Below, piece by piece: positions 3,325 through 62,616 of a stretch of 64,000 nucleotides of DNA. Made by a program: the position numbers and the translations under genes. Under the pieces are notes generated by a model. It was not told the origin of the DNA. It was given only the letters and a program-made list of their open reading frames with translations, and did not search any database. Every line of letters begins with the position of its first letter. Positions within the stretch are counted from its first letter, which is position 1. Origin of the DNA: Halichondria panicea (taxonomy: Eukaryota); the NCBI RefSeq assembly GCF_963675165.1, contig NC_087392.1, positions 142,022-206,021 on the forward strand. Direction: 5' to 3'.

Positions 3325-4601
3325 TCAGCCTACAACAATAGAGTCAATACTGAACTGAAGACGACTGCAAGTAACTAGCTCTTTAAGTTCAACAAATTGT
3401 GGTAGGCCTTGACCAAACTCGTTCATAGTCCCGCTAGTCACTTGCTTAGTAGTAGATACTTGTGTCGTGAACTCCAGTTGTTTCTGGAAAGTCTTTTTTG
3501 GGCCCACAATCAGACTAACGTGTACAGTTCCTTTAAAGGCCCATGAAAGCATTTCATCATTATCACCACGCATGATATGTACAAATACAGAGAGATGTGT
3601 AGTAGCACCTTGCCAGTACCATTAGGATACACACAGAGGCACAGCTTGTATCCATCAGGGTGAGATAGGAAGGAATGACTGAACCAACGATCTTTAGACA
3701 CGTAGCATTGAAACTCTGGCATATACACGACCACTGGGAGAGTAGAGACTTGTTGTTGTTGAGATTTCAGATCACTAATCTCTCGGCCTTGATTCTTGAT
3801 AGTTGCTTGAAGTAACACGATTTGTTCATCTCTTTTGGCCAGCTCTGTCATGAAGGCACTAGCAACTAATGACAAATGGCGGGAGACTTCTTGTTGGCCG
3901 TGACTAGCTGCATCCTTTCGATAGCTCATATTCAAACAGCTGGCAAATTTGTACTGACAAGCAACACTTTGCAATGGACAGGAGTTCAAGTGCTTCTTCA
4001 CATTTTTCCGCATAATATTAGCTCTGCACTTGTTTGGACAAGGAACTTTCAATGCTGGACACATTGTACGATGACTTCCTGTTATAGTTTGCCAAGCATC
4101 TACTTCACCACAGGCTTTACATGCGAACGGTCGTCTTGGACATCTTGTTAGGTGGTCGGGAGTGTTAACTCGAAGAATATTCTGATTGCAATGAGGACAA
4201 AGAACTCTACCAAAGTTACACTCTGCACTGAGATGGTTCTCAACATGCTTCAGCTGTCCGGACCAACTGCAACCTTTGCCTTTATTCTGGCAGTGCATCT
4301 TCAGCTCCCCTACTTCTCGACGTAGACTCTTGTTCAACATTGACGTAAACCTCTTATCTTGGCAGATAGGGCAAGGTTTATTCCTTGTCTTGATTGGGTG
4401 AATACAATTTGCACAAAAGTGATTTCCACAGCAGCTTGTTAGGTGGGGATCACGAAGTACAGACAAGCATATGCTGCATTTGAGGTTTTCAGAAGGCTCT
4501 GCTAGGAACTGGTAGTCATGACCCCCTGTGGAGGACACTATGGAGTTGCTTGAGCTTGAATCTACAGTGTACTCAGACCAGTTGGAATCTTGCGACGACA
4601 T
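3325..4601 (-). CDS. TRAF4: TRAF family adaptor (TRAF4-like): RING finger, TRAF-type zinc fingers, coiled coil and C-terminal MATH domain. The two ORF-track ORFs (3510-4601 and 3325-3573) are in different frames and overlap, so there is a 1-nt frameshift near 3603-3612.
   Basis: N-terminal HDYQFLAEP (as TRAF4 DYKFLEKP), C3HC4 RING CSICLSVL...CPIC, TRAF zinc fingers, and MATH motifs GYKLCLCVYPNGTG ... THLSVFVHIMRGDNDEMLSWAFKGTVHVSLI. Confidence 0.75.
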
Positions 4602-6440: not shown

Positions 6441-9400
6441 CACTGTTGACTGTACACAACTCTGAGTTACAATCTTCTAATTTCCAATCTAAAATTTGTG
6501 TTCTAAAGTTTGGGAAATGTTTTATAATCTGACCTCTTCCTCTCACTACCTTCAGATCCGAATCCTTCGTCTGCTGCGGCTCTTGGGTAGAGGAGACATG
6601 GACTCCAGTGAAGCAATGAATGACATACTCGCACAGGTGGGTGTGGCCACATGTACATGTATTATTGGCTAGGCTAGTGTTGATATTATGCCTCAGGGCG
6701 TTATACGTTAATAAAAGCTGTTTGTGTGTGGGATAATTGACCAATATTGACCCCACCCCCTCATAGGTGGCTACCAATACCGACTCTAATAAGAATGTTG
6801 GTCATGCCATCTTGTATGAGACTGTGCTCACCATCATGGAGATCAAGAGTGAGAGTGGCCTCAGAGTGCTCGCAGTCAACATACTCGGCAGGTTCCTCTC
6901 AAGCACTGACAAGAACGTCAGGTGAGCCCCGGGGAAGTTGTATCATGTATAAGCCCCGGGGAAGCTGTATCATGTATAAGCCCAGGGGAGCTCTATCATG
7001 TATAAGCCCGTGGAGTGTAATGTCCACGTGCTGTGTGTACGTGTGTGTATCCCCCATACATCACTATCTCCACTTGTAGGTACGTGGCTCTGAACACACT
7101 ACTCAAGACGGTGGCTGTGGACTACAACGCTGTACAGAGGCACAGGACCACCATCTTAGACTGTCTCAAAGAGAACGATATCTCCATTCGTCGAAGAGCC
7201 TTAGAGCTCTCGTTTGCACTTATTAGTGAGAATAACATCCGCTCTGTGATGAAGGAGTTGCTGGCTTTCCTGGACACGTGTGAGACAGAGTTCAAGTCCT
7301 TCATTGCCTCCAAAGTGCTCAGCGCAGCAGAGAGGTGTGAGCATTTAGTAGTGCTAATAGCTTTAATGGGTATTCGAAAAGCATTACATCAATAGTGTTT
7401 GAATAGTATTACATTTCCTGTGATTGTCGGTCAAAGCATTGATAATCATTTTGAGCTTACAACCATGTAGGCTAGAATCAAGTTGGGGCACCCAACTTAC
7501 CCTTTTTAGGATCTGTCTTTACTCAGATCTGCACTAGAATTATTCAGAATCATAACGCTAAATTTAATTTCCCCTTTCAGTTTGGCCCTGATACGATAAT
7601 TATATGAATATCTGGCTATCTAATTGTGGCTTTACAATTGCTCTCCACAGACACTCCCCCAGCAAGCAGTGGCACATGGACACCATCCTCACCATTCTTA
7701 TCAAGGTACACTAGCTGGTACATGAAGATGGCTGCTACGCAGAACTTAACCTACTGTAACCCTCCCTACAGTGTACCATGTATATAACCTACTGTAACCC
7801 TCCCTCCCTACAGTGTACCATGTACCGTATAGCGCGAAATTTTCGAGGCACTTATATTTCGTGGATTGGCCTCTAAAAACCATTTCGTTGCACAATGTTC
7901 GCGGAATAGCTGCTTACCGGAAGCCACGCCTTTAAATCTTTGCATGATAGCAGGTAATTCTAATTAAAGAACACTTTTTGTGGACTTAATTTTCGTGTAG
8001 AATTCTAACCCACGAAATCCGCGAAAATTAAGCCCCTCGAAAATTTCGCGCTATACGGTATATAACCTACTGTAACCCTCCCTCCCTACAGTGTACCATG
8101 TATATAACCTACTGTAACCCTCCCTCCCTACAGTGTACCATGTATATAACCTACTGTAACCCTCCCTCCCTACAGTGTACCATGTATATAACCTACTGTA
8201 ACCCTCCCTCCCTACAGTGTACCATGTATATAACCTACTGTAACCCTCCCTCCCTACAGTGTACCATGTATATAACCTACTGTAACCCTCCCTCCCTACA
8301 GTGTACCATGTATATAACCTACTGTAACCCTCCCTCCCTACAGTGTACCATGTATGTAACCTACTCTAACCCTCCCCCCTACAGTGTACCATGTATATAA
8401 CCTACTGTAACCCTCCCCCCTACAGTGTACCATGTATATAACCTACTGTAACCCTCCCTCCCTACAGTGTACCATGTATATAACCTACTGTAACCCTCCC
8501 TCCCTACAGTGTACCATGTATATAACCTACTGTAACCCTCCCTACAGTGTACCATGTATATAACCTACTGTAACCCTCCCTCCCTACAGTGTACCATGTA
8601 TATAACCTACTGTAACCCTCCCTCCCTACAGTGTACCATGTATATAACCTACTGTAACCCTCCCTCCCTACAGTGTACCATGTATATAACCTACTGTAAC
8701 CCTCCCTCCCTACAGTGTACCATGTATATAACCTACTGTAACCCTCCCTCCCTACAGTGTACCATGTATATAACCTACTGTAACCCTCCCCCCTACAGAC
8801 TGGAGAGTATATACGAGATGACCTGGTGTCCACCATCATAGCCATTGTGTCAGACAGTGCAGACATTCATGTGTACATAGTACAGCGCCTGTTCACAGCT
8901 CTGAGAGAGGACATCAGTCAACAGCCACTCACTCAGGTGGCACTCTGGTCACTAGGGGAATATGGAGACCTCATCATCACTGGTCAGATTGAGGGGGCGG
9001 AACCTCTGAACGTGAGTACTACATGTAGCTATTGTTAGAAATGCATTATTTGGTTGTTGTTTTGCCTTGCAAGTGTTATTCTAGTAGGGTCAATTTTTCT
9101 GCTGATTTGGCTCATTTGCAAATGGTTTTCACCAGCAAAATATTCTAGTAATACGATAAACGCCCTTGGTGGCATGTAGAATGGTGTTTGTTAACTAGTG
9201 CCCCCCCCCATGTTAACTAGTGCCCCCCCCGTTAACTAGTGCCCCCCCCCGTTAACTAGTGCCCCCCCCCCCATGTTAACTAGTGCCCCCCCCCATGTTA
9301 ACTAGTGCCCCCCCCCATGTTAACTAGTGCCCCCCCATGTTAACTAGTGCCCCCCCATGTTAACTAGTGCCCCCCCCCCGTGTTTGTTAACTAGTGCCCC

Positions 9401-18600: not shown

Positions 18601-21600
18601 GGGCGTGGCTGTTTCCTTGTATGGCTGCGGGGGAGCGGGGCGTGGCTTGATGATATTCTTGAGTCTGTGAGCATAGGGGAGTGGCTTGGAGGGTGGGGCT
18701 CCGTCAGAGAGCTTCTTGTCAGACTCCTGTGTACATAAACAATGTAACAACAAACCATGGAATATAGAGTACAAGAGAGTACATTCTTGTGGTGGTTCTA
18801 AAGGCTGGGCACTACAGTCCCTCACACATAAGCCACATGGGCACTATAGTCCCTCACACATAAGCCACATGGCTAATATGGTGGATCTTGTAACGCTAAG
18901 CATATAAATGAATTGTGGAAAATTTCACAAAGAGAACACAACACACCTTTTCCAGCAGCTTCTGTTTCCGCGCCTGAAGCTCCTGCACCTTCCGCAACAC
19001 TTCCTTGTCCTTTGCTGCCTCCTCCTTCTTGCTCTTTTTGGTCAGTGCGGGGCTGTTTGAGGAAGGAGGTGTGGCCTTCTTAGCGGTGGGGGGAGAGGAC
19101 TTGGCTGCACTCAGGTCCGCCTGCAGAAACATGAGAGTATAAAGAACGCCATTGTATCAATGTGTATAGTGTACACACCATAACAGAGTCCAGAGCAGCT
19201 TTCTTTTTAGCCATTTCTTGGTCTCTTTTGATCTTAACCAGCCTCTCCTCTCGTCTAGCTCTCTCCTCAACCTCTCGTTGGATCCTCTCCTGCTCTTCCC
19301 TCTTCCTGCGTTCCTCCGCTGCTCTCTGCTCTCGTTCCTCTGCCTCTCGTTGTTGCTTCTCCTGACACGCCCGCTTACGAGTGTCCACCAAGATACTCAG
19401 CTGGTGAACTTTGATCTCCTCCGACTGGTGGGTGGAGTTTAGACCCTGTGTGGAGAAGTGGTGTGACCTCAGTTACCGCTAGCATAGTAACCAAAAAATG
19501 CTACTACTGGATCCAATTTCAACATTTAATTCTGAAAGCTTCTTTCAAATGGTATCATCAATGTTCATGAGATGACAGAATTTGCCAATTTCAGCCAAAT
19601 ACCCATGGTCAAAGGCCGAAATATGATAAATTACGGCCCCAACCGAATTTTGGATTTCAACACATCATTTGAAAGGTCTCTTTCTAAGCTTTCAGAAAAT
19701 CATAAAATTGTTGAAATTGGATCAATGATACAAAAGTTATGGCTGCTGAAAGATGTTCAAGTACATGACTGTACATAATGTACGTACATTGTGTACATGT
19801 AACACCCCCACCTTCAGAATGTGCTGGTACTCCAGGAAGGAGGACCTTAGTTTGTCAGCCTCTTCTCTGTTGTGAGTTAGGTTGGTCCTCAGACCAGCCA
19901 TCAGTGCAGCCAGACCCATCACCTGATCATTGAGGGCCTTCCTGGACAACTGAAAATCAGAACCCTCTGCTCGCTGCTCTAGGCTAGACTGTAGTGCACC
20001 TCGTTGTTGGTGAAGAGAGAGCACTTGTGCCTGAAGACTCTGTGTGTGTGGTGTGTGTGTGGGGGGGGGGGCTAGAGCTAGTGATAGCTGTACATGTGGG
20101 CATAAGAAATTGTCATTAGCTCACAGTGAACATGTACAAAAGATATTGTATTTTTCAACCCACGATTAAAAGGGGGGGGCACTTACATTTAGTTCTCCCC
20201 GTGCCTTCCGCAACTCCTCCAGCCGCACTTCCCTGGACAACTGCAGTGTCCTGATGACCTTGCCTATCTCCACACAGGCCATCCTCTGCCTCTCAACGCT
20301 GGCTTGTGTCCCAAGGCGTCGCTGGTCCAACACCATCAGTTCCTGCTCCAGCCTCAAGTGCTGGTCTTTCAATATCTGTAGGGAATTTCTCTCCTTGATA
20401 CGTTCCCCTTCCAGCTCAGCTTGTCTCCTCCTGGCCCATTCTTCCTTCCTCTTTCTCTCCATCTCTCTTTGGGCGACTTCTCTTTGGAGCGCTAGTTTCT
20501 GCATTTGTAAAACGCGCTCTTTTTCGATCTCCATGGCTTTTTGTCGCTGCCTCTCTAGCTCAGCTTGGCGAGCTTGTTCTGCCTCACGCCTGCAGGGAAT
20601 AGCATCATGTGATAGCATCATGTGATAGCATCATGTGATAGCATCATGTGATAGATCTCTAACAGAGCTACATACACTGGGAGTGTGTACTCCTACAACG
20701 ACTGTAGACATGGCATCACACATTATGATTATGGTACATGTACACTCGTGCTACTTACTCTTGTTGCAACCTTCTTTCTTCCTCTTCTCTTCGTCTCCGT
20801 TCTTTCTCAGCCTGCCACACACAACAATACACTGGTCAGTCATGTGCCCAGAACACACACACACACACAACAATACACTGGTCAGTCATGTGCCCAGAAT
20901 GTTAGCAGTGGCTATTTCCAATCCTAAATCACACTACTGTCCACTCACAGTGATCCTCTCCTGCTCTTCCTGTAGTGCCCTGCGTCTTCGCTCCAGTTCC
21001 ATCCGTCCAGCCTCAAAATTATTCTTCCTCCTGTCCTCGAATGTCCTCCCAGTGTCTTCAGAGGAGGTGGTGCTCTGTCTACTGGCCCAGTCCGCGGGGT
21101 CAATCACACTCGACCTCTTCTCCAGCTGTGTCAGTGATGGGGGGGGGATGGGTTACTTCCAGGATTAGTCACCGTACACACATTAGTTAGGTATCTCACT
21201 TATGTGCACAAACACACAACGTAGTACATGTACTCATGCAGTGTGATTGTGTGCGTAGTACATGTACTCATGCAGTGTGATTGTGTGCGTAGTACATGTA
21301 CTCATGCAGTGTGATTGTGTGCGTAGTACATGTACTCATGCAGTGTGATTGGAGCGTAGTACATGTACTCATGCAGTGTGATTGGAGCGTAGTACATGTA
21401 CTCATGCAGTGTGATTGGAGCGTAGTACATGTACTCATGCAGTGTGATTGTGTGCGTAGTACATGTACTCATGCAGTGTGATTGTGTGCGTAGTACATGT
21501 ACTCATGCAGTGTGATTGTGTGCGTAGTACATGTACTCATGCAGTGTGATTGGAGCGTAGTACATGTACTCATGCAGTGTGATTGGAGCGTAGTACATGT

Positions 21601-23760
21601 ACTCATGCAGTGTGATTGGAGCGTAGTACATGTACTCATGCAGTGTGATTGGAGCGTAGTACATGTACTCATGCAGTGTGATTGGAGCGTAGTACATGTA
21701 CTCATGCAGTGTGATTGGAGCGTAGTACATGTACTCATGCAGTGTGATTGGAGCGTAGTACATGTACTCATGCAGTGTGATTGGAGCGTAGTACATGTAC
21801 TCATGCAGTGTGATTGGAGCGTACACAACCATGTGAGTTATGGCCACACAACAACTGACTACATTCAATCATTGTAAACAGCTTGATAGAGCAAGAGCAG
21901 CTACTGTTAGCAATTCAACAGCTTGATAGAGCAAGAGCAGCTACTGTTAGCAATTCAACAGGGACAAGTGTATAATGATATCACACATGGTTGGAACAAG
22001 CACCGCTAGATAAAAATATCCACCTCTTAGGTCTACATTACAAGACAATGTGTGAGAATGAGGATTGAAATAAACGACCACTTAGTTACCCACTCACTGG
22101 TCTATCTGCCCTCGTGGGTGTGTGTGCCTTCCTGTCAATGGTGGCGTACTTGGTGGGTCCAGGGTACAGCTCAGCGGGTAGTGTACGAGGTAGAGTGAGA
22201 CCAGACTTCACCCTCTCAGCTAGATGCATGGCCACAACAAACTCCTCACAGGCTAGGTGGCCGTCTTGGTTGACATCGACCAGCTCCCATATCTTTGCCA
22301 GTACACCAGTGTGGAGTCCAGTCTTGGCAAACATAGGTGCTGCTTCAGCACCTGTAGGTACAATGTAGTGCAGATACAATGTAGACTGTCTGAAACCACC
22401 ATTAGACATAGACACACCAACCAGCCAAACATCTAGTCTGATGACATGTACAGTACTTGTATACTTGTGGAGTGTAAACTGTGTACAGTACTTGCAGAAA
22501 GGGGCGTATTATTGCTTACATAATGTCTATACTTGTTTGTAAGTTGATTTGGCTGACCTGAGAGTTTTCCAGTATTTCTTTTGTCGAGTGTATTGAACTG
22601 CATAGTGTATCTACGTCGGTCCTGAGTTGAGAGGGACCACCCCTCCTTCATTGTCGCCATGGATACACCCACCCCCACTCCGAGGGGTGGAGTTTGCTGT
22701 CTCAGTATTTTCGGAGAGGCCCATGATTGAGAGAGAGGGTTCACTGAGGTTGTCGGGAATGAGGCAAACTGGACACGGGGAAATACACAAGTGTATAGAA
22801 TGTTTTGGATAAAGTAGCTCTTAGTAATGTAAACCAAAGCAACGCATGACTGCACATGTGCATTAGCAAGGAGCTGTCCATTCAGCACAGACTAGTGTAC
22901 CACCCACACCACACCACACACTCACGCCCACCACACACTCACACCACCCACACCACACCACACACTCACGCCAGTAGCTGGTAGGGAGGTGTTGAGGGAC
23001 TCTTGTTTGGCATGTCTTATGAGAGTCAGTGCCATGAGGAACTGAGGCTGATTGATACGGCCATCACCATCTTGATCCACCGATGTCCTGAGGGGAGGGG
23101 CAGTTACACCAGCTAACAGTACGACTACACCCACACCACACTCCCGCCCACACCACACACTCCCGCCCTTGGTCCACCGATGTATTGAGAGGAGAGTTAC
23201 ACCCACTCCACAATCAAAGGACACACTACTAACAGTACGCCCACACCACACACTCCCACCCACCATATCTGCGCCAGCCTCTGCTGTGGGAGACCTGACG
23301 ATCGGAAAGTCAGTCTGACTTGCTCTCCTACAATGAACAAGAAAGGAAAACATGAATGAACAGGAAATCATCTTTTGAGCGATATCCTTGTTATTGGGAG
23401 TGTTTGGAAATACATTGCACACCAAACAGGAGGATTAGTATTAGTCAGGAGTTCATCGTAGCGTGGTTTGTACTACAACTGCCATTCCGATACTCCTCTT
23501 CCTGATGGTACATGTAGCTAGTGTGAGGGTGGACACGCCCACTCACCAGTGAGGAGTCCATTGACGGGGGAGAGGGAATGGAAGATGGCCTCATCATTTG
23601 GAGGCGTGGCACCTCCAAAAGCTGCACACAATCATACATACATGGCATTTCCATACTCTGACATACGTAGTAGTGTGTGTGTGTGTGTGGGTGTGTGTGT
23701 GGGTGCGTGTGTCTCACCTCCTGGGATCCCCCGCAGTGTAGACCACCCTCCAGTACTCAT
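13047..23760 (-). CDS. ITSN1: Intersectin (ITSN), multi-exon gene of about 35 exons. Stop TAA at 13047-13049. Domains by coordinate:
- C2 domain, 13047-13580.
- PH domain region, 13755-14150.
- DH (RhoGEF) domain, about 15023-15553.
- Five SH3 domains: 15937-16134, 16282-16473, 16905-17174, 17518-17763 and about 17986-18180.
- KLERQ-type coiled coil, 18896-21130.
- EH2, 22086-22888.
- EH1, 23000-23100 plus 23521-23624.
The putative start ATG at 23760 is tentative.
   Basis: Translations match intersectin across all domains:
- C2: [31 protein letters not shown] ... [22 protein letters not shown] ... [14 protein letters not shown].
- DH: [29 protein letters not shown] ... [13 protein letters not shown].
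- SH3: [15 protein letters not shown] ... [19 protein letters not shown].
- EH: [25 protein letters not shown]; [20 protein letters not shown]. Confidence 0.9.
15555..15665. repeat. Imperfect (TG)n/(GGTGTG)n microsatellite. It forms the 3' end of the intron preceding the ITSN DH-domain exon on the minus strand.
   Basis: Direct reading. Confidence 0.9.
16594..16891 (+). mobile_element. MITE family reference copy (about 298 bp). It has about 65-bp TIRs (ctttcaacagccgtaacttgatccgattttcaaaattttatgattttctgaaagcttagaaagagacctttcaa ... ttgaaaggtatctttctaagctttcagaaaatcaaaaaatcattgaaattggatccacggaattcaagttatggcagctgaaag), in an ITSN intron.
   Basis: Long terminal inverted repeats are read directly. 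There is no coding capacity. It is more than 90% identical to the copy at 55271-55567. Confidence 0.8.
19508..19753 (+). mobile_element. MITE family copy, 5'-TIR truncated, in an ITSN intron.
   Basis: Shares the internal and 3'-terminal sequence (…ttgaaattggatcaatgatacaaaagttatggctgctgaaag) with the other copies. Confidence 0.7.
21222..21822. repeat. Minisatellite of about 13 units of 48 bp (cgtagtacatgtactcatgcagtgtgattg[tgtg/gag]) in an ITSN intron.
   Basis: Direct reading. The ORF-track ORFs here are repeat artefacts. Confidence 0.95.
22905..23270. repeat. Degenerate ~20-bp tandem repeats (ccacaccacacactcacgcc) flanking both sides of the ITSN EH1 exon (23000-23100).
   Basis: Direct reading. 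Confidence 0.8.
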
Positions 23761-25709: not shown

Positions 25710-26702
25710 TCACCTTCCGTTTCTGACGATCTTGAATGCCCCCTGTGTGGCCAGATGGACTACAGTGGACCCACTTCTACTGGACACCCTCTCATCTTCA
25801 ACTATCCTACCACCATCAACAACAAGGTCCAGGTTAGGCCACAGCTCCTTGAACTCCTGCACAAGGAGAAAACATCTGTATGGTATGGATTCAACATGAA
25901 GGGTAGTTTGATAAATAATTATGTGAGGAATGTTTCATCAAAAGCATTATGTTTAGTACCCATACCTCTACAGCTAGAGTGCTCCTAGTGTCACTGATGT
26001 TGGCGCTGGTGAGGGCTATGGGATAGCCACACTCTCGTACCAGCTGGCGTATGAAGTCATGGTCCGGTATCCTCACTCCAACAAGGGACGTGTCAGGATT
26101 GAGTGCAGGGGGGAGGGAGGAACGTCTCTCAAACACAAGTGTCACTTGACCAGGGAGCAGTTGTTCCAGTACCTCCCTACCCACAGTCACATTAGCCCAT
26201 CTGCATGAACCACACAAATTATAAGACATTAATTAATAATCTTAAAAAGATGGACTTTGGAATTATCAGTTGTAATGAGTGAGAAGACTCAAGTTGGATA
26301 AATCTCTTACTTGTCCACATCATCCAGATCACCGACACAGATGGCGATGGGTTTGCCTTTATTTCGACCTTTAATCTTGTACAATCTCTCAATACCTTGT
26401 ACAGAGTTCACGGATGCTGCAATACCATATATGGTGTCCGTTGGGAGAGCGACCACACCTCCAGAGTTGAGCACAGCTGCTCCCTCCCTCACAATACGAT
26501 CAATGGGTTCCTGTGTGGAGGAGAATATAATATGAAGTATCATGTTGTATTCATCGCAACAATGACTCACTTCGCTGATTTTGAGTATTTTTGCCGCCAT
26601 TGATGAGCTCCTCAGCCTCCTGCAGTTGAGTGCTTGTGCTTGTACCAGGAGTCCCGATCTGCTACAACTGAATAGACGGCTGCACCATGCACAACTGATC
26701 AT
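25710..26702 (-). CDS. YRDC: YrdC/Sua5-family threonylcarbamoyl-AMP synthase (YRDC), about 4 exons. Stop at 25710-25712. The N-terminus is R/S-rich (MISCAWCSRLFSCSRSGLLVQAQALNCRRLRSSS), which resembles a mitochondrial presequence, upstream of an alternative Met at 26600.
   Basis: GGVVALPTDTIYGIAASVNSVQGIERLYKIKGRNKGKPIAICVG, WANVTVGREVLEQLLPGQVTLVFERRSSLPPALNPDTSLVGVRIPDHDFIRQLVRECGYPIALTSANIS, and C-terminal EFKELWPNLDLVVDGGRI...GSTVV. Confidence 0.8.
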
Positions 26703-26853
26703 TTATACACGGGAGACAAGTCATTGCACCACCATTGCATTGTATTGCAATAATGTGCCCCCTCGATCCAATTCCCAAATGTCGCGGGGGTAAGACTGAC
26801 AAGCTGTTGAATTACTGACCGAGGTTCGATTCGAGGAAAGATTCTTTTTTTCG

Positions 26854-26867
26854 GTTGCCCAGGCAAC
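26854..26867 (+). promoter_or_regulatory. X-box (RFX transcription-factor binding site) GTTGCC-CA-GGCAAC, a perfect palindromic half-site pair, 63-76 bp upstream of the start codon of the ciliary (CFAP47-like) gene.
   Basis: Matches the consensus GTNRCC-N(0-3)-RGYAAC. The location upstream of a gene encoding a cilia/flagella-type protein is typical of the RFX ciliogenic regulon. Confidence 0.6.
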
Positions 26868-26878
26868 TATTTATAAAG
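26868..26878 (+). promoter_or_regulatory. TATA box (tatttataaag), about 55 bp upstream of the ATG at 26930.
   Basis: Canonical TATAAA at the right distance from the first coding exon, immediately adjacent to the X-box. Confidence 0.45.
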
Positions 26879-26929
26879 CCGTAGCCTAATCCCTGAGTTC
26901 ATCAAAGACAGTCTTTTTGGCAGCGCAGA

Positions 26930-44013
<17,084 letters not shown>

Positions 44014-44217
44014 GCATGCATGGCAGTTTTACCATTACATGATGTTTTAACATATTGTGTGCAATTTTCAGAACAAGTATTTTAAACATAATTATTGAAA
44101 AAAGCAATGTGCAACCTCAACTATAATATCAATTATAATAAGCATACAGAAAAAATACCAATGCAAAGTGGGTCAGAAAACAGCTTGACTATAATTACTA
44201 TTGTTATAAAGTTTTAA

Positions 44218-52211: not shown

Positions 52212-55200
52212 ATGGAGACAGATGCTGCTACAGAGGAACAATCAGGTATCATTGTAAAGCCATCCAGAGTTTCCAGTCTAATGCTCACTAAGCTCTTACC
52301 ATTGCCTCAGAGATGGCTAGCTCATCAGCAACTGAATGCCACAGCTACAGATGTATGTCCAGAGAGGAGCTGTGTGCTGCACTGGTGGAGAAGGTGAGCC
52401 TCTACCATCATGGCCACCACCTTACCTAGTACCCACTGGCCCACAGGAGTACAAGCTCGAGTGTGCAGGGGACCAGCTGCAGTCTCTCTCAGTGTACAAG
52501 GACGAGTGTGGGCGTAAAGATGGAGTGATTGTAGAGCTGAGGAGAGAGCTAGCCGCTTACAAGCACAACTCACACACCAAAGACATCAGGTCCAACAATC
52601 TAGTGATTAAAACATCCCCTATCATCAGCTTTAGTATAGACTCTACTGGCAGGTGACTCTGTCCAATTGTACGCCAGCTAGACTTATGGAATCGTTAACT
52701 TATCCACATGTATTGTTGCGTATTGACTGATGACAATGTTTCATTCCGCCTTCCCTCCAGCTATGTCACAATGGAGGAGCACCTCTCTGCCTGTGAGCAC
52801 CACCTCCAGCTCAAGACCAGTGAGGTGGACAAGCTAACACAGGAAGCAAAGTCATGGAAGGAGAAGGTGAGATGATCATCAATACACACCATAAGTGCTA
52901 ACATACAAGTATATATCTACAAGTATCTACTTTATACTGTACGCTAGGCTTCAACTGCTGAATCCAAGCTGGGAATGCTAGGGACTGGTACGTCCTCAGG
53001 CAAAATCAATGTACTACAAAAGGAACTCTCCACCAAAAAGTCTGAGATTCTGAAGCAAAAGCAAGAGCTGCAACAGCTGCGAGCCCAACAACAGACAGAG
53101 AAGGACAGCGGTGATTCACTGAGGCATCAAGTTGCTGAGCTACAAGCAAATCTATCCTCTGTCCAATCTAAGGTTTGATTGAACACTTTGTGCTTTTGAC
53201 AACAGCTGCGCAATCTTTTCGTTTCAGATGAAGCAAAGCAAATCCTCCAACGATGACTTAAAAATGGTGATAATTATTGTTTGGTTTACTAGTTATAACA
53301 TGCTCCCTCTGTGTATACAGCAGCTGCAAAGAAGTGAGTGTGACAGAGAGAGGGCCAGTGTGGCTGAGCAGAGGAGGAAGGAGGAGTTAGGGAAGCTCAA
53401 GTCCTCCGTGTGTGATGGGAGACTGGTCAGTGTTGCAGGTCTTTGTGTCTTCAGTAGTCATCGTGTACTCTGTGTAGGCTCAAGCTAAACAAAATTTCCT
53501 GGAGGCTCAAGTTGAGAGGACAAAACTGAAGGAGGGTGAGTTGGCTGTTCAACTGGGAAAAGTCAAAGAGGAGGTGAGAGAATAATGGAATAATGTGTAT
53601 AAGTATGCTTGTCTTCTATAAGGTAGACTGTATGCGTAGTAGTTGGTGTCTTAAAAACTATATTTGTTCCCATGCATACTTGCATGCACATGGCGTAGGC
53701 TCAGGCTAAACTGGATTTCCTGGCGGCTGAGGTTGAGAGGGCAAAACTGAATGAGAGTGAGTTGGCTGTTCAGCTGGGAAAAGTCAAAGAGGAGGTGAGA
53801 GAATTGTTGTGCTTTATCTAAGCAACCATATTACCCTGGCCACAATAGCTGTGTACAACGTGTGAGAGGGTGGTCACTATGACAGCACAAGTCCTCCCCC
53901 CTGCTGATGAGGAGAGTGGTGGTCCAGTGGAGGCAGTGGAACAGTTGACTAGTGAATATACCACTGTTACTGAACAACTGCAGACCACTCAGACACAACT
54001 GACGGAGGTAATCACGCTGTCTTGTGAGATCGTCTTAAATAATTGTGTAGGTGCAAGCTGATATTGAGACTGCCAATGCCACCATTACAATGCTGACTCA
54101 GCTGTGGACTGATTTTAAGGTAACCACGATTAATGAGAACTTGGCGAATTTTGATATGATAATTTTCAGTGTGGTGTTGGATCATGTGATCTTACCCAGT
54201 CATCACTAGACACCTTGATGGCGACCCTCAGTGGACTATCCTCCCAGGAGCAGACTAATAGTTGTCAAACACTCATCGTAAGCAGACCCTCCTCACACAC
54301 ACACACATCATGCATAACTTTATGTACTGTTACTGGATAGAATGCAATGAAAGAAAGCTTGAATGTACTGAACACTGAGCTGGTTGCTAAATGGGTTCAA
54401 CTGGTGGCTGAGATAGGAGGCCATTGTTCAAGACTAGAGCTTTCCAGTGAAGGTGAGCCATTCTCATTACGTATGGTATACATGTAGGGTTATGGTACTT
54501 GTATCGTACAGAGACAATCGAACCAGTTGCTAAGCTAGCTTTGCTGATTGAAAAGATTGATTCACAGATAGCAGAGAGCATACAACTTCAAGTCAAGTAA
54601 GAGTATATCCCATAGCCAGTGTTGTTATTACCCCCCACTGTGCTGTTACCCCCCACTATATTATTACCCCCCACTGTGCTGCAGACTGCAGGGGGTGGAA
54701 GAGGGTCACCTGGCAGAGGTGGCAGCCCTGAGGGGAGCAGAAGAGGAGAGGGTGGTTACAGCCGTCCAGGAGAGCCTGGTTATTGAGAGGGTGAGGGCCG
54801 AATGGTCTTGGCTACATGTATCTGTGATGTACACGTACACGTATGTACTGAGTGCTCTAATTACCTACTGTAATTGTTACCTGTGTCTGCGTGCACGTAC
54901 AGGGGAAGGTGATCAATGAGATGCAAGCTCTAGAGCAGCGACTAGAAGCAGACAAGCATGAAGCCGTTGCCAATGAACAGAGGAATAACTCAATTCTTAG
55001 CGAGCAACTCACAACTGTTAAGGAGGTAGTGTTGACGTATTGAAAACATGCAGGGAATTTCAATAGTTTCTAACTGCAGTCTTTACTGGCTGAGCGCAAT
55101 GAGAAAGATGTACTCAAAGCAGAGAAGGTACGGTAATAATGTGTGTTTACCCCAATGTTACTATGAACGGGTACTATTTTAGCAAATTAAATTAAGTCTG

Positions 55201-60574: not shown

Positions 60575-62213
60575 TTAGTTCACAGTGTAGTATCTCCTAA
60601 GCCCATCCACGTACAGCCACTCCATAGCTCTGGCAGGAGACAGTAGCTTACAGTAGTGCATGCCAGCAAATATACCGATACTGTAGGTCACGGCCGTCTT
60701 CATTTGTATTGACTGAACGGTAACTATCTCACCCCCCGTTGAGTTCGTACCCACTGTGTAGTCCATAGGGAGGTAGATCCATAGTCCTCCGTTCTTAAGG
60801 CAACCCTTGTCCTCACCCATAACCATGGCAACACCGTGCTCCTTGAAGCGTGACAAGGTAACGGGGTCAGAGTTCTTCAACGCCCAATCGTACGCCTGTT
60901 GATTAATGGTCTTGCAACGAGAGCCTGCATCAGATTTGTTGAAATCCACATTTCCATAGCCGGCAGCAATCATCACAGACTGTCGAGATTTTAGTTTTGC
61001 TCGTATTTCATTAGCAGAAGTAGCCACCTCACCATCATCATACAGATCATGTTCATATATATTCTCACTTACTGAAGACAGTTGCACAGTGCAGGATGGA
61101 CTGGTGGTTGAGCAGTTGCTGAAGATTGCCGGGTGGTGGAACTTAGGCAGTATCTCAGAGGCTGGATGGATTTCGTCAGTATCGTTGATATGGCCAATAT
61201 CCAGCTGTGCCATTGTTACCATGGAGGACTGTGTCCACGGACAACCTACTTGACAGGCTGGACTTGGAGGGTTCTCAAAACAGGGAGTCTTAAATTTGTA
61301 CGAGGCCTCAAGTTTGTACGCCTCGATGATTGGTTTTAGAAACTGTCCAGTACTTGCAACGGCATCTTTGAGAGCGGGTAGACAACTTGTGTTTCCAAGA
61401 GCAACAGAAATGTAATTTGACACAACTGCTGAAACTTTTGAGTGTGCAGAATCATACGAAATCTCTGGTTGAAAGTCACGATCTTTGATTGTCTTTGGCA
61501 TTGTCCCTGAGGCAAACTGGAAGTGTGACATGCCCCTCACCACGACAACAGGAAAGGTTGAGACAGCTTTAGTTGGATCAGTAGCAACTTGCACTCGATG
61601 ATAATACTCCTCCATGATTCTAGTTAGTCTGGCCACACCATCCAACTCTCCACCAATAGTCAGGGTGTGCACCGGGTACGGGGGGGAGCTGCGATAGATT
61701 CGTTGCAGGAACGAACCAAACAGGATTTGCCCTGCAGAAATAATATCAAATGGTGAAAGAATGACAAACGGGAAAAACAAGCCACTCTATACATACATTC
61801 CAAATACACACACCTGCAGTGTTGTGAGCAAGTGTGGTGTTCTTGACGAGGTAGTCTTGCAGTGGATTAGCGCTGACTGGAGAGTGGGCTGCAAAGAATA
61901 GCCGAGTCTTCACCGCCATTCCTTGAGCCTGCATGGACAGCAAGATGCGACTAATGGCTTCTCCTATCTCAGTGCTGAGCACGGCATCCAGAGGGATGTA
62001 AGGGATACCAATCCAGAGAGGGTAGTTGCAAACATCTTGCATTGCAGTTGCCAATGGTTTGTACTGTGATGGGTCCACTCCAGCACTTGGAATGAGCACC
62101 AAGGCAACTGGTGATCTAGCTTCATTAGGAGGCTTCAGAATGACATCTCCAAGAGCTGGTTGCATGAAGAGAAGAGTTCCAATGGCGACCAAAACGGACT
62201 GCAAACTAGCCAT
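60575..62213 (-). CDS. Secreted protein of about 550 aa of unknown family, 2 exons (61790-62213 and 60575-61740), joined by a short intron at about 61741-61789. It has an N-terminal signal peptide (MASLQSVLVAIGTLLFMQPALG), a Cys-rich middle region and several N-glycosylation sequons.
   Basis: Two long minus-strand ORFs are joined by a GT-AG intron (…AHNTAG|QILFGSF…). No confident family match by eye; possibly hydrolase-like (…RLFFAAHSPVS…). Confidence 0.6.
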
Positions 62214-62616
62214 CTTGGTTAGCTTGTTAATATTAATGAGGGTGGGGCTGACTTTTAATATTGCTCATAATACGCCGCCCTCTCAACATTGTTAATTATT
62301 ATTTTCACAAATATAATTTTATTTTTAATATACCGTATATCTTCTAATTTATCGGACAGTAAAAAAGTGTGGTTACCTTTTCGATTGCCCAAAAGAGTGT
62401 CCGGGGTAATTAGAAATGTCCGATAAATAAAAAGATATACAGTAATTATACATAATAATGATATGCCAATTTTGAGATGAGTGTGTAATGAGGGATGAGG
62501 GAAATAGGCACAAAAACCAACAAATAATTGAGAAGGGAAAAATACATGTAAGAGAAAGATACCATAACAACAGTGTGTGCGTGTGTGTGTGTGTGTGTGG
62601 GTGGGGGGGGGTTTAC

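Follow-up and report, generated by a model that had tools for sequence, protein, structure and literature searches.

The window, that is the whole 64,000 nucleotide stretch of DNA which was analysed, is eukaryotic in character with short GT-AG introns and many (CA)n microsatellites. Thirteen gene loci were read in it and 11 of them could be identified. CFAP47 is the only ciliary gene among the 11, the other ten (0/10 ciliary) being those for a TRAF-like RING protein, an adaptin, a T-box factor, an intersectin-like protein with EH, SH3, RhoGEF and C2 domains, a Snf7/CHMP protein, YRDC, a PET-LIM protein, a probable Wee1-like kinase, a 3CxxC zinc-ribbon protein and a NUDIX protein. Outside this count are a gene for a coiled-coil protein at 52.2-58.1 kb and an uninterrupted open reading frame of 403 codons at 60578-61786 on the minus strand. 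The latter is adjoined by a frame of 172 codons (61749-62264), and neither frame has a Pfam match. Two minisatellites were found inside genes, one with a 42-bp unit repeated 17.8 times in the adaptin gene (8058-8798) and the other with a 33-bp unit repeated 18 times in the intersectin-like gene (21220-21823), each with 97-98% matches between copies.

The gene of interest runs from 26930 to 44014 on the plus strand, about 17 kb made up of many short exons, and its predicted product is a clear orthologue of CFAP47 (also CHDC2), which belongs to the central apparatus of motile cilia. In humans CFAP47 is X-linked and counts as a male-infertility (MMAF) gene. Translations of the exons were compared with the solved CFAP47 chain of 3184 amino acids (9ijj_4A), which served as the reference for colinearity, and matched it in the same order at five places. 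The DNA at 26.9-28.3 kb corresponds to residues 32-283 (E=1.4e-6), that at 30.9-31.9 kb to residues 723-880 (E=3e-5), the exon encoding the CH domain at 38.3-38.8 kb to residues 1724-1857 (E=1e-29), the DNA at 42.9-43.1 kb to residues 2871-2921 (E=1e-3) and that at 43.4-44.0 kb to residues 3014-3163 (E=5e-26). At each of the five places the second match was Chlamydomonas FAP47 (7n6g/7sqc). One exon encodes an Ig-like domain of the HYDIN/CFA65 type (PF22544, 34.7 bits against a cutoff of 25.5) and also gives a weak MSP match. The product thus has the features by which membership of the CFAP47 family was judged, namely giant size, a central CH domain, Ig-like (ASH/HYDIN-type) structure and colinearity with known CFAP47. 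An earlier note on this DNA had described a giant axonemal or ciliary gene built from ASH/MSP repeats plus a CH domain. The five colinear matches support the ciliary identity and the CH domain is present, but the ASH/MSP repeats are only roughly right as one such domain reaches Pfam significance.

Coding exon 1 of CFAP47 (26930..27085, plus strand) has 52 codons and ends at a GTAAGT donor at 27086. Its junction with exon 2, SHP/DFHLL, aligns across CFAP47 residues ~60-70, and residues 18-262 of the translation align with CFAP47 residues 32-283. Given this N-terminal alignment and an in-frame TGA at 26894-26896, upstream of the ATG at 26930, this ATG is the coding start, provided that no coding exon from further upstream is spliced to it. 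Intron 1 (27086-27138) has a perfect GTAAGT donor and at 53 nt is unusually short when set against vertebrate introns, although the alignment supports its junction.

The neighbouring gene, YRDC, points the other way. Its ATG is at 26702 on the minus strand and exon 1, as read from the sequence, occupies 26571..26702 (44 codons) with a GTGAGT donor followed by an intron of 60 nt. The downstream exons (25710..26510, minus strand) encode a Sua5/YciO/YrdC domain (PF01300, E=1e-15 and 5e-17), and this Sua5_yciO_yrdC match bears out the divergent YRDC gene named before. The N-terminus encoded by exon 1 is basic and rich in serine and arginine, with zero acidic residues before the second methionine (MAAKILKISE). 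Its composition looks like that of a mitochondrial presequence, and the second methionine is a possible alternative start.

The start codons at 26702 and 26930 leave 227 bp between them (26703..26929) and not the 228 bp previously reported. The two genes are on opposite strands and less than 1 kb apart, as divergent promoters are defined, when judged by their start codons, and the gap is a putative bidirectional promoter. It contains 10 CpG, has 45% G+C and has a CCAAT at 26768 but no forkhead motif.

Within this gap the sequence GTTGCCCAGGCAAC, GTTGCC-CA-GGCAAC, was read directly at 26854-26867. This X-box is palindromic, belongs to neither strand in particular and consists of two perfect RFX half-sites at the canonical spacing of 2 nt. 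It is predicted to be a site for an RFX dimer. The motif fits GTNRCCNNRGYAAC, GTNRCC N0-3 RGYAAC and GYTRYY N1-3 RRHRAC, and differs from the ideal GTTGCCATGGCAAC at two positions, both of them in the spacer, which is CA instead of the preferred AT. GTTGCCATGGCAAC and GYTRYY N1-3 RRHRAC are published palindromic consensus sequences (PMC3414849, PMC4168999). The X-box is 63-76 bp upstream of the CFAP47 ATG at 26930 and only 152 bp from the YRDC ATG, and a TATA element is found directly on its 3' side. The letters and coordinates of the palindrome, its distance from the CFAP47 ATG and its place immediately before the TATA element (TATTTATAAAG at 26868-26878 adjoins it) are exactly as the earlier note had them.

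Other identities for the palindrome were examined. There are no tRNA genes in the window from which it might have come, and although GGTTCGATTCGAGG just upstream of the X-box resembles a tRNA B-box, it belongs to no tRNA. No Rfam families were found in the window, and the surroundings of the motif are free of repeats and of longer inverted repeats. Compared by eye, the motif does not fit the sites of NFI (TTGGC N5 GCCAA), EBF (TCCCNNGGGA) or AP-2 (GCC N3 GGC). Motile-cilia promoters often pair FOX sites with RFX sites. A forkhead motif of the FOXJ1 type, RYAAACA, is absent from 26300-27400, about 500 bp either way of the X-box.

Perfect palindromes of the 6-N2-6 form are frequent when any sequence is allowed, 22 being seen in the window where 15.6 are expected, so it is the specific RFX sequence which is improbable here and not its palindromy. 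The base composition of the window predicts 0.0025 occurrences of the perfect GTTGCCNNGGCAAC per 64 kb and 8e-6 in the 227-bp gap. The sequence occurs once in the 64-kb window, at 26854-26867. GTNRCCNNRGYAAC gives 3 strand-matches at 2 loci of the window against 0.25 expected, a number reached by none of 100 shuffled sequences (0/100). When up to 2 mismatches to GTTGCCATGGCAAC are allowed, there are 3 matches in the window where 0.41 would be expected, and at least as many were found in 1 of 100 shuffled sequences. All three of these matches fall within the first 4.4 kb of CFAP47 and, given the first site, the chance of the other two falling in the same 4.4 kb is ~0.005. The Laurencon consensus, GYTRYY N1-3 RRHRAC, is so loose as to be uninformative in the window, with matches at 22 loci against 8.7 expected, four of them contributed by a tandem repeat with a 344-bp unit. 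This repeat (36200-37522, 3.9 copies, 95% matches) is inside CFAP47, in an AT-rich stretch with 38% G+C at 36-38 kb, and the count is inflated by a weak match to the loose consensus in every copy. Two further sites fit the loose consensus on both strands, one at 3802-3816 in the TRAF-like gene with a 3-nt spacer and one at 53966-53978 in the coiled-coil gene with a 1-nt spacer. Both of these are probably due to chance.

The two additional matches to GTTGCCATGGCAAC share a single CFAP47 intron of 95 nt (31146..31240, plus strand, GT...AG, phase 0). The intron was verified by joining its flanking exons, the translation of which then aligns continuously with FAP47 650-796 and CFAP47 723-880. The first motif, GTTGCCATAGCTAC at 31155..31168, has one perfect half-site and an AT spacer and departs from GTTGCCATGGCAAC at 2 positions; on the minus strand it conforms to GTHNYYATRRNAAC. 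The second, GTTGCTATGGTAAC at 31224..31237 (reverse complement GTTACCATAGCAAC), fits GTNRCCNNRGYAAC on the minus strand, and GTHNYYATRRNAAC and GYTRYY N1-3 RRHRAC on both strands. The two motifs are 69 bp apart and 4.3 kb downstream of the promoter X-box. The two sites are alike within the motif only and their flanks are unrelated, which speaks for constraint on the motif and not for a local duplication. The pair may serve as an RFX enhancer within the intron or as an internal promoter. In HEATR2, X-boxes in pairs at distances of 15-162 bp have been described (PMC4168999).

The TATA element abutting the X-box (TATTTATAAAG, 26868..26878) is near-symmetric. On the plus strand it reads TATAAAG at 26872-26878 and on the minus strand TATAAATA, from 26875 down to 26868. 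A TATA box was taken as TATAWAWR located ~25-35 bp upstream of a start site. Only the minus strand matches TATAWAWR, and TATAAATA on the YRDC strand is thus the better match. A TATAAA on either strand is found within 12 bp of only 2.6% of the 14-mers of the window. Since the element can be read on both strands, its orientation is not given by the sequence alone. A plus-strand start ~30 bp downstream of the element, at ~26900, would give CFAP47 a leader of ~30 nt with no upstream ATG, there being no ATG on this strand between the TATA element and 26930. If the element directed a start on the minus strand, the YRDC leader would contain three upstream ATGs and with them a 4-codon upstream ORF. 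This pattern of upstream ATGs suggests that the TATA element serves CFAP47, an assignment which it favours without proving. The sequence directly before the CFAP47 ATG, TCTTTTTGGCAG/CGCAG at 26913-26929, resembles a splice acceptor, and transcription may therefore begin elsewhere, in a non-coding exon further upstream. On the minus strand at 26911-26924, at 44 bp downstream from the perfect X-box, there is a degenerate X-box-like match, GCTGCCAAAAAGAC. This match overlaps the acceptor-like T-run and CAG directly before the ATG and could be a second, relaxed X-box or the trace of an upstream non-coding exon.

What the sequence itself shows is the motif, how improbable it is, where it stands with respect to the start codon, which gene follows it and that this gene has a second cluster of X-box-like sites. 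The mechanism that we propose for it is considered probable. A dimer of RFX2 or RFX3 on the palindrome, ~40 bp upstream of a TATA-directed start, would activate CFAP47 in cells with motile cilia or flagella. In this mechanism a ciliogenic RFX dimer (RFX2 or RFX3, possibly RFX1) is predicted to occupy the 14-bp palindrome. Transcription would start at ~26900 under the direction of the TATA element, placing the centre of the X-box at about -40. RFX would then activate CFAP47 through this motif wherever motile cilia or flagella are built, and the intronic pair of X-boxes may add to the RFX input. YRDC too may come under the influence of the motif, which is a palindrome within the 227-bp gap between divergent genes. 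Counting against the mechanism are the CA spacer, the missing forkhead motif and the acceptor-like sequence before the CFAP47 ATG.

This reading fits published observations, in which the X-boxes of motile-cilia genes cluster just upstream of start sites; the X-box here is close to the start codon of such a gene. For human X-boxes a window of -500 to +500 is robust (PMC5838959), and the ChIP peaks of RFX1-3 are centred just upstream of start sites (PMC7498320). X-boxes are also enriched in the core promoters of genes of multiciliated cells (PMC5245798). CFAP47 is over-expressed in multiciliated cells and falls in a transcriptome cluster in common with RFX2 and RFX3, while Otomorpha fish are without CFAP47 (PMC8470418). 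A literature search gave no direct connection of CFAP47/CHDC2 with an X-box or with RFX ChIP, and the exact 14-mer was not found in the literature text searched. The X-box at 26854-26867 is predicted to be one more example of a well-known element, and X-box control of motile-cilia genes is a textbook expectation. The interpretation offered earlier, an RFX X-box at a ciliary gene, is supported as far as sequence analysis goes. If confirmed, CFAP47 would join the direct targets of RFX and the gap, at <=227 bp, would be a very small candidate promoter with which to drive transgenes specifically in cells with motile cilia. The assignment is useful for annotation and leaves the current view of cilia gene regulation unchanged, as X-box control was to be expected.

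Other readings were weighed as well. Were the X-box bound mainly by the broadly expressed RFX1, RFX5 or RFX7, and were it to act on YRDC or on both genes equally, then it would not be a mark of cilia-specific control. The palindromic form of the motif and the mere 152 bp separating it from the YRDC ATG agree with this, as do the match to TATAWAWR on the YRDC strand only and the report that RFX1, RFX2 and RFX3 have indistinguishable motifs and sites in common (PMC7498320). However, a TATA-directed start toward YRDC would meet the three upstream ATGs with their 4-codon ORF, and the extra cluster of X-boxes is inside CFAP47 and not inside YRDC. YRDC is also not known to be linked to the RFX regulon, and on balance we regard control of YRDC by broad RFX factors as unlikely. 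A related proposal makes the X-box and the ambiguous TATA element a minimal two-way core promoter, which would place both YRDC and CFAP47 under the ciliogenic RFX programme with the twin intronic X-boxes as a downstream RFX enhancer or internal promoter. This seems quite improbable; if true, it would mean a lineage-specific coupling of tRNA modification (YRDC, t6A) to ciliogenesis.

RFX1, also known as MDBP and EF-C, can repress as well as activate. The site might therefore act mainly as a repressor or boundary separating a tissue-restricted CFAP47 promoter from a constitutive YRDC promoter, and it does lie between promoters that probably differ greatly in breadth of expression. Such a role is given a very low probability, since a site ~40 bp from the putative CFAP47 start is in the typical activating position for cilia genes and no sequence feature specifically indicates insulation. 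That the promoter motif is there by chance and regulates nothing would be helped by the large number of motifs which could have been recognised, with the multiple-testing burden that this brings, and by the 22 perfect 6-N2-6 palindromes of the window. The specific sequence, at 8e-6 expected occurrences in the gap, nevertheless retains p <0.01 even after a thousand motif hypotheses. It is found beside a TATA element at the one ciliary gene among the identified genes of the window, and that gene carries two further X-box-like sites, which makes chance a very poor explanation. Activation of CFAP47 by RFX2 or RFX3 is accordingly the reading we prefer, though as a prediction.

The closest known counterparts of the CFAP47 site are the vertebrate motile-cilia X-boxes of Dync2li1 and Heatr2/DNAAF5, bound by RFX2/RFX3 (PMC4168999, PMC7498320), which share with it a palindromic GTTGCC..GGCAAC within ~100 bp of where a gene with an axonemal or ciliary product begins. 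In both systems there are one or more additional, more degenerate X-boxes in the same gene; those of the Dync2li1/Heatr2 type are 15-162 bp away whereas those of CFAP47 are intronic and 4.3 kb downstream. The CFAP47 X-box also differs in having no FOX motif nearby. Occupancy and dependence on RFX have been demonstrated for Dync2li1 and Heatr2/DNAAF5, while the CFAP47 site is a prediction known from its sequence. The DAF-19 X-box of C. elegans (GTHNYY AT RRNAAC, ~100 bp upstream of the ATG) resembles the CFAP47 site in its architecture, a 14-bp imperfect palindrome, and in its distance from the ATG. Both of the intronic sites fit the DAF-19 consensus GTHNYYATRRNAAC exactly, but the promoter site fails the strict consensus with its CA spacer in place of AT. 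The cilia of C. elegans are all non-motile, and the worm is not known to have central-apparatus genes of the CFAP47 type.

More distant is the S-X-X2-Y module of MHC class II genes, bound by RFX5/RFXAP/RFXANK with CREB and NF-Y. There too an RFX-family protein acts on an X-box near a start site, as is predicted for CFAP47. The MHC class II X-box is, however, a non-palindromic half-site which requires adjacent X2 and Y (CCAAT) elements at fixed spacing, whereas the only CCAAT here is 86 bp upstream of the CFAP47 X-box and the target is a cilia gene. The RFX1 sites of viruses known as EF-C/MDBP, in enhancer I of hepatitis B virus and in the polyomavirus enhancer, are near-perfect GTTGC...GCAAC inverted repeats bound by RFX dimers. 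They resemble the CFAP47 X-box in the inverted repeat but are located in enhancers, have spacers of 1-3 nt and have no link to cilia.

Orthologous promoters were sought via protein homologues of the CFAP47 N-terminus, of which 0 were found in the protein database searched, and a metagenome scan for related loci with the same N-terminus gave no match. The corresponding scan with YRDC gave only five intronless YrdC-like loci of 29-46% identity (L001-L005), which are apparently microbial. The CH region of CFAP47 has a sole database homologue, a JGI metagenome protein of 573 amino acids (P0001) encoded on a contig of 2372 bp. This is an intronless ORF, 49% identical, with PF24529 (a CFAP47 domain) as well as the CH domain, and it presumably represents eukaryotic DNA or cDNA in an environmental sample.
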